Positions 9,001-12,000 of a DNA stretch of 12,600 bases are shown in pieces; within the stretch, counting starts at the first letter, position 1, and each line of letters starts with the position of its first letter. The DNA is from a virus. A program made the position numbers. The stretch lies in the UHGV virus genome UHGV-0240756. One strand, written 5' to 3'.

Positions 9001-12000
9001 AGTCCATGCGGTAGTAAATCTGCTTCTTGTCGAAAATCCCTAACTCATTGATTTTTTCGGCAACGCAAAAATGCGCTCTCCGGAAATCTTCAGAGCAATG
9101 GCAATTTTTCAGCGCCCTCAATACGTCCGCATGACGCTTACCAAACGCCTTAGCGATCTGAAAAGAGTCTGTTATTGGTTCGCCATCTGCCGCTGTTACC
9201 AGTTGGCGAAAATCAATACCGTCAACAATCGTCGGATAGTTCATCGCGTTTTACCTTTCAGAAAATTGAGCCTGTCTCACAGAAAAGCCGCCCCGAGATG
9301 GTCGCCACCATATACGGCAGTTCTCAGGCTCAACTTTCTGAAAGGCTCGGGGATGTGATATGCGCGTGAGATGCGCGGTGAAATTCAGATATGAAAAAGC
9401 CAGCGATTAAGCTGGCTCTGTTAATTCAGGCACTGAGTGCGGATATAGTCCTGTGCCCCTTCCAGCTGCTTCTGCATCAGCATCAACCGCTCTCTGAGGG
9501 TGAAATAATCCCGTTCAGCGGTGTCTGCCAGTCGGGGGCCGGTTGCATTATCCACGCCGGAGGTGCCGGTGGCTTCACGCACGGTACCGGAGCAGGTGGC
9601 GTTGATCCGCAGGCGCTTACGACCAGCGGCAACATCAGCACGCAGAGTTTCATTTTCAGCTCTCGCATCGGCTAATTCCCTTGAGTATCTGGCATCAAGC
9701 GCAGCAACATCACGCTGGCGCTGCTGCATGTCAGTAATGGTTGCGTTTGCCAGCTCCAGCTCTCTGGCTTTTTTATCGCGCTGCGCTTTGTAGGTGATGG
9801 CGTTATCACGGTAATGGTCTGTTGCCAGCCACAGCGCACCACAGACCACCAGCAGAATAACGGTAAACGCGGAAAGCATTCGGTTTATGCTCACCCCACC
9901 AGCCCTGCTGAAGTCAACGCCATCCAGGTTATGGAAAGAAAAAGAGCAACCAGCATTAGTGAAAATGAAATACCGACGATTACACAAAGGCCCTTCGCCA
10001 GCATTATGAGTTTGTCTGACATCTTTACCTCTTAATAGCAGTAATTAACCGGGCAACCACCCATAAAAACGGAATCAGCCAGACCAGCAAAAATTTCCAG
10101 TCCATTTTTATCATCTTCATGCTGCGGTAGCTCTCCATGCAGCAAGCAGACCAGCAATCCACTGAACACCTTTTGGGGTGAATTTAACCTGCGTAAAAGC
10201 ATGACCATTGCCCGCCTCGCCCGTTTTCACGCTAAACCGCCCCGCATCCAGGTGATACGAGTAAGGCGTCATTTTTCCAGCGAGGCGATACATTATTCCG
10301 TTCTCCAACAAAAACAGCCGGAAATCGGTTTCTTTGATACCGAGTAACTTAGCAACTTCCCGGAATCCCATCAGACCAGATGCTTCAACATAGTTATCAA
10401 CAAATTCAGCCTTCGGCGCTGCTATTGCCAGTTGATTTTCCAGCACTGCTTTCTGTTCAGCCAGTTTTGCCGCAAATCGCAACGCCTCAGGTAAAGTCCG
10501 GGGGATCTGAATACCATGCATCGCTTTGAGTCTTGCCAGCACAGAACGACGAACGGCCTTTGACTCCCTCATGCCAACGAGCATCATCTGGTCAAAATCC
10601 AGATCATAGTATGCCGTTCTTGTCTGGTTATTGTTTAACCGGAATTTTTTTCCGGTTCCATCAAGCTCTAGCTCATCCTCAATTTTTGCAAGAAACTTAC
10701 GCGGTTCATGAGGGACTTCTCCGGCTTCTGCCCGGGCTGGATTAATAATGTTATTCAGAAAATCCAGACTACTCATGGATATTTCATGATCGACAGAAAT
10801 CATCTCTTTCATGGTTGATTCCTTTTAGTGATGAACCCTGCGCACAGGAATAACCAGCCCAAAGAGGGTTAACCAGACCACTGCCGGTTATCCACCAGGG
10901 CTCATCCTGAAAGGTTCTTTGGTTTATTTACGCTTGTGCGAAGCGCAGAAATGACAAAGGCACCATTACGGTGCCTCTGCGTGAAATAATCTGCCTAACT
11001 TTATTCACTTACATTTTGCCAGTTCGCAGGATTTCGTGTTATCCGCCCGCGCTGGCCAACGTCATTTTTCAGCAAAATATTCTGCTTATCTGTCGATTCC
11101 CCAGCACGCCAGAGCGCTCTCCTGGTCACGACGGGATACCTGACCATAACAGTTATTTGAGCGAATACGGCAGTCCCTGCCACCGTCCTTAATCCACCAG
11201 CGAATCGCCTCACACGCTCCCCTGCGATCGCCTGCATTAATTCGTTTATAAAACGTCGACGGGAAACACTTACCGGGACCAATGTTATACGGACAGAATG
11301 ACGCGATCCCCGCTTTCTGGGGTTCGGTCAGCGGCACTCTGATGTTTTTCTCCACCCACGCCAGCGCTTTATCACGCTCAATGGCGTTAACCTGGTCGCA
11401 TTTTTCCTTCGACAACTTCATGCCCGGAACGACAGGTTTGCCATCCACCACCGTGGCACCCCGGCAGATGGTCCATATACCAGAACCATCACGGTATGCT
11501 GTGGTGTGGTTACCTTCTTTTTCATCCAGAAACTGGTCGAGAATGTCAGGCGCAGATGCGCCTGCAGTAATCAGCGCCAGAATGGCAGCCGACAGGCCGT
11601 ATCTGATTTTTGCGTTCATGGATATTTATCAGGATTTATCGGTTCCGAATCCCTGGATATGTTAAGTCTTCAGCCCGCCAGTGGTGGGCACTGGCGTAAA
11701 CTCAACAATGCGAGATGGCTGCCTCGCAAAGATAATCAAAGCAATGGATGCACTAAGTAAAAATAACGCTGTGTCAGATTACCTGATCGCCGAAATGGAA
11801 CATCTAATTAAAGAAATACCAAAGACAGTTGCTCGTGATGATAAAAGATTCCTCAAGGCTGCTGAAGATGCTCTTTCAACAGTGAAGCGCAGCTTAGATG
11901 CGCCGCGCGATCAAGAATAGTTTCTTTCATTTCATCTGCTGCAAGCACCTCATTTTTTGTTGGGGTGCTTTTTTTCAATTCAGCGATATAGCACTCCAGT

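Follow-up and report, generated by a model that had tools for sequence, protein, structure and literature searches.

What lies between the antirepressor-like gene and the spanin gene Rz in the virus genome UHGV-0240756, and does it take part in the lysis of the host? The stretch analysed here, 12,600 nucleotides (nt) long and called the window below, is the late region of a lambdoid, Shiga toxin (Stx)-phage-like Escherichia coli prophage; its closest genome matches, at 97% identity, are Shiga toxin-forming strains of E. coli (STEC) and pig isolates. On the minus strand the genes follow each other in the order phage-21-type (P21) holin, DUF1327, lysozyme, ant, a, b and Rz/Rz1, where ant is the antirepressor-like gene and a and b are two small open reading frames (ORFs). 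The answer given here is that a and b are very probably genes, with predicted one-helix inner-membrane peptides as products, that they appear to move together with ant between unrelated lysis cassettes and, tentatively, that they tune the membrane steps of lysis.

Two probably coupled reading frames and their predicted products

The elements in question are the following.

9891..10022, minus strand: ORF-b, 43 residues, MSDKLIMLAKGLCVIVGISFSLMLVALFLSITWMALTSAGLVG; PHROG 4906, the WP_001280922.1-type 'hypothetical protein'
10025..10120, minus strand: ORF-a, 31 residues, MKMIKMDWKFLLVWLIPFLWVVARLITAIKR; its ATG overlaps the ant stop (the 29-residue version is 10025..10114)
10023..10033, minus strand: a/b junction, AAGAGG-TAA-AG, directly 5' of the ORF-b ATG

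The initial annotation read the minus strand as an ant stop in the context TGA-AG-ATG followed by a frame of 29 residues (10025..10114), and then as TAA-AG-ATG followed by a frame of 43 residues (9891..10022), with an AAGAGG ribosome site 5 nt 5' of the ORF-b ATG and the ORF-b stop 11 nt upstream of the Rz ATG (9879). This layout is recovered when the strand is read again, and two of the interpretations attached to it change when relatives are compared. First, the start of ORF-a was probably misplaced. The ATG of the ATGA overlap with the ant stop is the only ORF-a start kept in all copies linked to ANT1, the antirepressor-like gene of the window; it is the sole in-frame ORF-a ATG in a divergent relative, L172, which has about 80% DNA identity to the window; and the third ATG of ORF-a is mutated in 10 loci. 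Since only the overlap ATG is conserved in ant-linked copies, ORF-a has 31 residues, begins MKMIKMDWKF... and occupies 10025..10120. Second, the repeated stop-AG-ATG, earlier taken as a sign of real genes, is a coincidence. What is conserved instead is the ATGA overlap at the ant/a junction and a gap of 2 nt at the a/b junction, and this gap is kept in 32/32 instances while its sequence varies between TAA-AG-ATG, TAG-CT-ATG and TAA-GC-ATG. The ribosome site of ORF-b sits within the last codons of ORF-a, and the only ribosome site for Rz here is distant, G-rich and placed inside the last codons of ORF-b (GTG-GGG-TGA).

How often would such an arrangement arise by chance? When the interval is subjected to 5000 dinucleotide shuffles, one ATG-initiated ORF of at least 43 residues appears in 15% of them, such an ORF together with a second one of at least 29 residues appears in 3%, and two ORFs that are both as hydrophobic as a and b appear in 0.02%.

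Conservation of the frames in related phages, proposed earlier as a check, is what the comparison gives. A tblastn search finds ORF-b at full length in 276 phage records, including 933W, phi24B, P27 and Min27, with identities down to 63%, and in most of these records it is left unannotated. It is intact and without insertions or deletions in 164/164 loci; these instances come from 170 fetched loci and represent 33 different DNA sequences and 26 different proteins. The ORF-b ATG, at position 1 or -1, is present in four differing upstream contexts, each of which has a G-rich ribosome site 5-9 nt before it. In three kinds of downstream context, Rz begins 7-11 nt after the ORF-b stop or else a small ORF of another family, c or d, comes immediately after it; the recombination junctions fall at the ends of ORF-b. 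The pooled ratio of nonsynonymous to synonymous polymorphism (pN/pS) is 0.48 in frame, whereas four of the other five frames give 0.83-1.26, and the corresponding ratio of substitution rates (dN/dS) is 0.32-0.48 as against about 1 in the off-frames. In the comparison of the window with L172 it is 0.37 (p 0.02), and the off-frames then give 1.0-1.4. Some residues, S2, V14, G17 and L36 among others, are invariant despite synonymous variation at their codons, and the replacements that do occur retain hydrophobicity to a greater degree than expected for random mutation (p 0.04). A 933W-type homologue of ORF-b, XECs191, is also listed as a novel gene found by ribosome profiling (RIBOseq) in uninduced E. 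coli O157:H7 Sakai, with a predicted inner-membrane location and one transmembrane segment; in lysogeny broth (LB) it reached 30.0 reads per kilobase per million (RPKM) in the transcriptome and 12.6 in the translatome, a ribosomal coverage value (RCV) of 0.43 and a coverage of 0.55, and the values were lower in brain heart infusion (BHI) (PMC5597208). No entry for ORF-a, c or d was found in the supplements of that study. ORF-b is very probably a gene, and one under moderate constraint.

For ORF-a the number of loci is smaller and the constraint stronger. The 24 codons of its core have a dN/dS of 0.09 against L172 (p 3e-4 to 2e-3), as low as that of the neighbouring ant (0.17 against L172), and pooled over 8 distinct versions the core gives 0.26 against about 1. 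The frame is intact in 27/32 loci. Its match to PHROG 6632 is weak and partial (E 1.7e-4, residues 5-28 of the 29-residue form), and so is that of an ORF-a variant which occurs without ant (E 6e-5). ORF-a, too, is very probably a gene, with a core under strong constraint. Both frames behave as real, tightly coupled genes, as the initial annotation had proposed.

The same data bear on the opposite explanation, that a and b are not genes at all and instead are chance ORFs in conserved non-coding DNA, or shadows of a real gene on the other strand. An ORF at least as long as ORF-b is, as seen above, not rare among the shuffles, the antisense frame across ORF-b is free of stops in all variants and has a pN/pS of 0.55, and the mirrored antisense frame is also low in the L172 and ORF-a comparisons. 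This antisense frame, however, has no conserved start or end, and an antisense gene across ORF-b was rejected for that reason. The sense frames, on the other hand, keep their starts, ribosome sites and stops, the module boundaries lie at the ORF ends, the synonymous excess in ORF-a is significant and the RIBOseq call is on the sense frame. That a and b are not genes is in our judgement hardly credible.

A further explanation grants that the ORFs are translated and denies most of the meaning of the product: they would be spacers that deliver ribosomes to Rz and protect the mRNA, and the peptides would have little or no function, their hydrophobicity being tolerated. The start and stop geometry is indeed kept while the peptide varies, the C-terminal GTG-GGG-TGA of ORF-b doubles as the G-rich ribosome site of Rz, the constraint on ORF-b is weak among close relatives, and R and Rz overlap by 4 nt in lambda-like cassettes that are free of an insert. 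Against this must be set the invariant residues of ORF-b, the dN/dS of the ORF-a core, the replacements that preserve hydrophobicity, the rarity among the shuffles of two ORFs this hydrophobic, and the finding that four separate families at this place all are one-helix membrane peptides. We consider the spacer explanation quite improbable.

Each product consists mostly of one hydrophobic helix, as had been noted, and the best 19-residue Kyte-Doolittle windows score 2.26 for ORF-a and 2.65 for ORF-b. AlphaFold2 models residues 2-38 of ORF-b as one helix, with a mean predicted local distance difference test (pLDDT) score of 89.7. A polar R/Q is conserved within the helix of ORF-a, with E and R in L172, and makes its membrane span less certain. 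On these predictions, ORF-a and ORF-b are very probably single-pass inner-membrane micro-proteins.

Their size and single hydrophobic helix would also fit toxin-like peptides that depolarise the membrane, in the style of the type I toxins Hok and TisB, and an open antisense frame or an antisense transcript is possible. A promoter of their own, a long 5' leader and a recognised antisense RNA were, however, not found, no Pfam toxin family is matched, and NCBIfam, PADLOC and Rfam give no relevant hits. The ORFs are, moreover, embedded in an operon and coupled to their neighbours, and up to 11 copies per genome are tolerated. Such a toxin role is very improbable.

A variable junction and a portable block

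In all 173 loci whose gene layout was compared, ORF-b has the endolysin on one side and the spanin, or a lipoprotein, on the other. The layouts are given below with their counts; singletons and partial loci make up the remainder.

R-ant2-b-Rz (933W type): 86 loci
R-c-b-Rz: 35 loci
R-ant1-a-b-Rz (window type): 18 loci
R-ant2-b-d-methyltransferase-Rz: 5 loci
R-a-b-Rz: 5 loci
R-a-b-c-d-Rz: 2 loci
GH108 endolysin-ant1-a-b-lipoprotein: 2 loci

ORF-b is the constant member among four one-helix families, a, b, c and d, which occur in shuffled combinations and orders at this junction of Escherichia lambdoid and Stx prophages. In some genomes all four families are annotated as hypothetical proteins by the Prokaryotic Genome Annotation Pipeline (PGAP). 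Families c and d are paralogues of each other (PHROGs 4493 and 3246 are common to both; hhalign 79%, E 1.6e-5), which indicates that small transmembrane genes have multiplied at the endolysin-spanin junction. Families a and c have only a C-terminal motif in common (hhalign 11%, merely suggestive). A common origin of a and b was considered and rejected at an hhalign probability of 0.3%, and ORF-b is unrelated to the other families.

In some prophages c (38-48 residues, VTDDISRALAFAIKWVAVGIAVSPMLYGLAKLVIALKS) and d (28 residues, MSAELIRAMAFAIRIVAIAVLVWAIRWW) are one-helix ORFs between ORF-b and Rz, as at positions 2227-2440 of locus L004, 2166-2380 of L006 and 1975-2228 of L088, and the stop of d overlaps the Rz ATG. 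In the commonest layout without ant, c lies upstream of ORF-b.

Of 5426 complete E. coli genomes, 1717 have DNA related to a and b; the places number 4619 in all, with as many as 11 in a single genome. The claim that the two ORFs are absent from canonical cassettes holds for the K-12 prophages DLP12 and Qin, in which R and Rz share 4 nt and no other gene intervenes. From the lack of a and b in K-12 prophages it follows that small-protein surveys based on K-12 could not have detected them.

To the array of small genes must be added the block in which a and b travel. In the window its parts, and the hairpin that precedes it, are as follows.

10958..10976, minus strand: terminator-like hairpin, AGGCACC/GGTGCCT with a U-rich tail, 3' of lysozyme (dG -18.8, z -4.1)
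10813..10951, minus strand: conserved structured leader of 139 nt, 5' of ant and at the 5' end of the block (-50.3 kcal/mol, z -4.06)
10117..10812, minus strand: ANT1, KilAC-domain antirepressor-like gene, 231 residues (Pfam PF03374, E 4.7e-28; PHROG 63)

In L172 a divergent ORF-b of 44 residues is found in a prophage with Phage_holin_8, Phage_holin_3_7 and a GH108 endolysin, where the endolysin is followed by terminator, leader, ant1, a, b and a short lipoprotein gene that starts at TAGTGATATG. The homology to the window extends over 1057 nt with 79.7% identity (window 10951..9900); it begins about 140 nt 5' of ant and ends 9 nt short of the ORF-b stop. A homologous block of this length in an unrelated cassette means that ant-a-b moves as a unit, and the sequence comparison thus has leader, ant, a and b travelling together between unrelated lysis cassettes. 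ORF-b also occurs without any ant. The lipoprotein ORF of L172, at positions 3140-3322 of that locus, codes for 51-60 residues with an LVGC lipobox and a mature part of roughly 30 residues; no Rz-family gene was called near it, and it could be an o-spanin-like or another lysis lipoprotein.

A classic intrinsic terminator lies in L172 at the place of the window's hairpin at 10958..10976, which a simple terminator scan did not call. The 18-base-pair outer stem of the leader pairs with the Shine-Dalgarno sequence of ant, AAAAGGAA; this leader is found again ahead of ant2 of 933W, an unrelated gene, and it contains one compensatory change from a C-G to a U-A pair. Rfam, searched at a permissive threshold, gave nothing relevant and assigns the leader to no family. 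The leader may exert translational control on ant and, via coupling, on ORF-a and ORF-b.

Is the junction then merely an insertion site? The portable block brings forward the explanation that a and b are cargo ('moron') genes with a role outside lysis, for instance superinfection exclusion at DNA entry or modulation of a host membrane protein, and that the endolysin-spanin junction is simply a place where insertions are tolerated. It fits that antirepressors and DNA methyltransferases are found at the same junction, that leader-ant-a-b moves between unrelated lysis cassettes, that a terminator-like hairpin of the kind typical of morons precedes the block, that the genes are dispensable, and that the ORF-b homologue is transcribed and weakly covered by ribosomes in an uninduced lysogen, a low signal which, however, spontaneous induction could explain. 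It fits less well that the strand of a and b has no promoter-like site, that the two ORFs are co-oriented with the late genes and tightly coupled to them, that PADLOC gives no hits, and that the position of ORF-b just before the spanin gene is exact in 173/173 loci. We regard the cargo explanation as rather unlikely. The methyltransferase-like ORFs at the junction, of 255 and 314 residues and so assigned from their N-terminal sequences only, lie between b or d and Rz in loci L040-L042, L057, L068, L025 and L061.

A possible role in the tuning of lysis

Our tentative proposal, to which we give somewhat less than an even chance, is that a and b are non-essential late inner-membrane peptides that tune the membrane steps of lysis. 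In this scheme a and b would be transcribed on the Q-dependent, antiterminated late transcript, a step suggested because a simple promoter scan found no promoter-like site on their strand. Translation would pass from ant to a through the ATGA overlap, and from a to b across the 2-nt gap with the ribosome site inside ORF-a, and ribosomes that end ORF-b would be released 11 nt before the Rz ATG and handed over to Rz. What they tune could be the triggering of the holin, the freeing of the endolysin from its membrane tether, or the action of the spanin. As a target, something generic, such as membrane energisation or a host membrane protein, would be more likely than one specific phage lysis protein, because the block is also seen in a cassette whose holin and endolysin are unrelated.

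Several observations weigh against a role in lysis, or against the strength of the case for the genes on which it builds. The translational coupling is deduced from spacing only. Neither Pfam nor NCBIfam nor PADLOC provides a homology link to a lysis function. Selection on ORF-b is weak in close relatives, where a minimum-change count gives S=29 and N=54 with p 0.08-0.23 and where the probability that none of the 83 changes creates a stop by chance is 0.04-0.10, and stops are missing from the antisense frame across ORF-b in every variant, as described above. One ORF-a variant, present in 5 loci, has a premature stop. The RIBOseq signal of XECs191 is low, and it comes from uninduced cells and a multi-copy locus. 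The peptides are dispensable, being carried by only 1717 of the 5211 genomes that match a lysozyme-to-Rz query and missing from DLP12 and Qin of K-12. Finally, the junction also houses cargo, in the form of two antirepressor types and two DNA methyltransferases, so that position alone is no proof of a lysis role.

The tuning proposal can be extended from a and b to the whole array. Families a-d would then form an undescribed class of portable late one-helix peptides; these would set the lysis clock regardless of the particular holin or endolysin, for example by a shift in membrane energisation or via a host membrane factor. This bolder version we think unlikely.

How do a and b compare with small membrane proteins already known from lysis regions? 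In phage 21 and P1, S21-71 and LydB, LydC and LydD are small membrane proteins encoded in or near the lysis operon that shift its timing and are individually dispensable (PMC9025707). Phage Mu has gp25, a 'releasin' of the DUF2730 family, which is a small membrane-tethered lysis accessory and acts on the release of signal-anchor-release (SAR) endolysins, including those of other phages (PMC9239132). All that ORF-b has in common with the Mu releasin and the P1 accessory holin-like proteins is that each is small, dispensable, located in the membrane and encoded in a lysis region. Mu gp25 has an N-terminal transmembrane segment and a cytoplasmic domain, DUF2730, whereas ORF-a and ORF-b consist of hardly more than one helix, are too short for such a domain and have no Pfam hit; in addition, Mu has no holin, while the window cassette has one. 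The ant-a-b block also occurs with an unrelated holin set, and its presence in a cassette whose holin and endolysin are both unrelated speaks against an antiholin that is specific for one partner. When ORF-b is compared with the window holin by BLASTP, no alignment results, and no Pfam holin family is found for a or b.

Lambdoid morons such as bor are, like a and b, variable and dispensable accessory insertions in the late region. In lambda, bor has a promoter of its own, from which the lysogen expresses it. In 933W and DLP12 bor lies just after Rz on the opposite strand, whereas a and b are co-oriented with the late genes, apparently promoterless and coupled to them.

The two genes lie in the operon that releases phage and Shiga toxin, and reference Stx phages carry ORF-b homologues. 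If they alter lysis timing, they would be a factor, so far overlooked, in how toxin is released and how fit Stx phages are, and a regulator independent of the cassette would be added to the holin-endolysin-spanin scheme. If the array as a whole sets the lysis clock, both the timing and the amount of phage and Shiga-toxin release would be influenced in Stx phages. If there is no effect, the locus is a clear example of how small cargo genes and translational couplers accumulate at one junction of a late operon.

Catalogue entries and the surrounding cassette

The initial annotation called the ORFs unannotated and likely to be missed by routine annotation, and in this it was mistaken. The exact sequences of 43 and 31 residues are in GenBank, RefSeq and UniRef as hypothetical, prophage or membrane proteins, so that both ORFs are already known as catalogued, uncharacterised proteins. 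In RefSeq genomes PGAP calls ORF-b in the syntenic position under the accession WP_001280922.1 and names it 'hypothetical protein', and a hypothetical protein underlies the match in all of the genome-search matches listed. The exact ORF-b sequence is on at least 1000 contigs, and it matches PHROG 4906 over its full length, its residues 1-43 aligning with positions 7-49 of a profile of 49 (E 3.3e-24). The exact 31-residue ORF-a is on 115 contigs as 'prophage protein', with cluster mates named 'membrane protein', and it is annotated in phage PhiR5_1; it was not called in the inspected RefSeq records with the ant-linked layout, and the 29-residue form is absent from the public sequence collection that holds the 31-residue form. 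The matched PHROG families are labelled 'unknown function'. Pfam, NCBIfam and PADLOC give no relevant match for a, b, c or d, the best Pfam score of ORF-b being DUF7186 at E 0.2, below the cut-off, and ORF-a having no Pfam hit.

The literature search found no functional study of these ORFs, their sole mention being XECs191 in the supplement of PMC5597208. PHROG 4906, the WP_001280922.1-type proteins and XECs191 belong to the same family as ORF-b, with no difference in kind, and their records describe neither a function nor the a/b/c/d array nor the portable ant-a-b block. What is added here is the corrected start of ORF-a, the array of four families at one junction, and the portability of the block.

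A profile search of 1.84 billion representative proteins gave 29 hits, among which there were no distant relatives with known function; the three divergent members that were traced are from Escherichia. Among species-representative genomes the sole hit was NZ_JPLE01000251.1 (locus L087), a contig of 328 base pairs labelled Xanthomonas pisi, which carries the 3' end of a 933W-type ant2, ORF-b and the 5' end of Rz; an occurrence in Xanthomonas was rejected, since this is almost certainly contamination by E. coli phage DNA.

The other members of the cassette in the window are these.

9421..9879, minus strand: Rz i-spanin, 152 residues (Pfam PF03245, E 2.4e-50)
9483..9668, minus strand: Rz1 o-spanin lipoprotein, embedded in Rz, ORF beginning MRELKMKLCVLMLPLVVSAC...
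11086..11619, minus strand: lysozyme R, 177 residues, R21/RrrQ type (Pfam PF00959; PHROG 7)
11853..12383, minus strand: DUF1327 ORF, 176 residues, between holin and lysozyme
12387..12600, minus strand: phage-21-type class II holin, cut by the window end (Pfam PF04971, E 6.2e-33)

Downstream of Rz/Rz1 on the minus strand follow a Rha-type regulator and then HNH, terminase, capsid and portal genes. Rz1 is annotated at the equivalent position in 933W. In six viral loci the start of Rz is ATT and not ATG (AACCGAATTATTTCC), with an intact ORF-b upstream, and in those six copies Rz may be inactive or initiate elsewhere. The lysozyme, which is separated from ant by 273 nt, has an E-x8-D-x5-T motif and a weakly hydrophobic N-terminal segment, YGLSAAILALITAGASA, and we infer that it is of the SAR type; SAR endolysins have been predicted for the main endolysin groups of Stx phages (PMC8136144). 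In related prophages the site of the DUF1327 ORF holds a YdfR-family gene or nothing, and these alternatives make the holin-endolysin junction a second variable insertion site.

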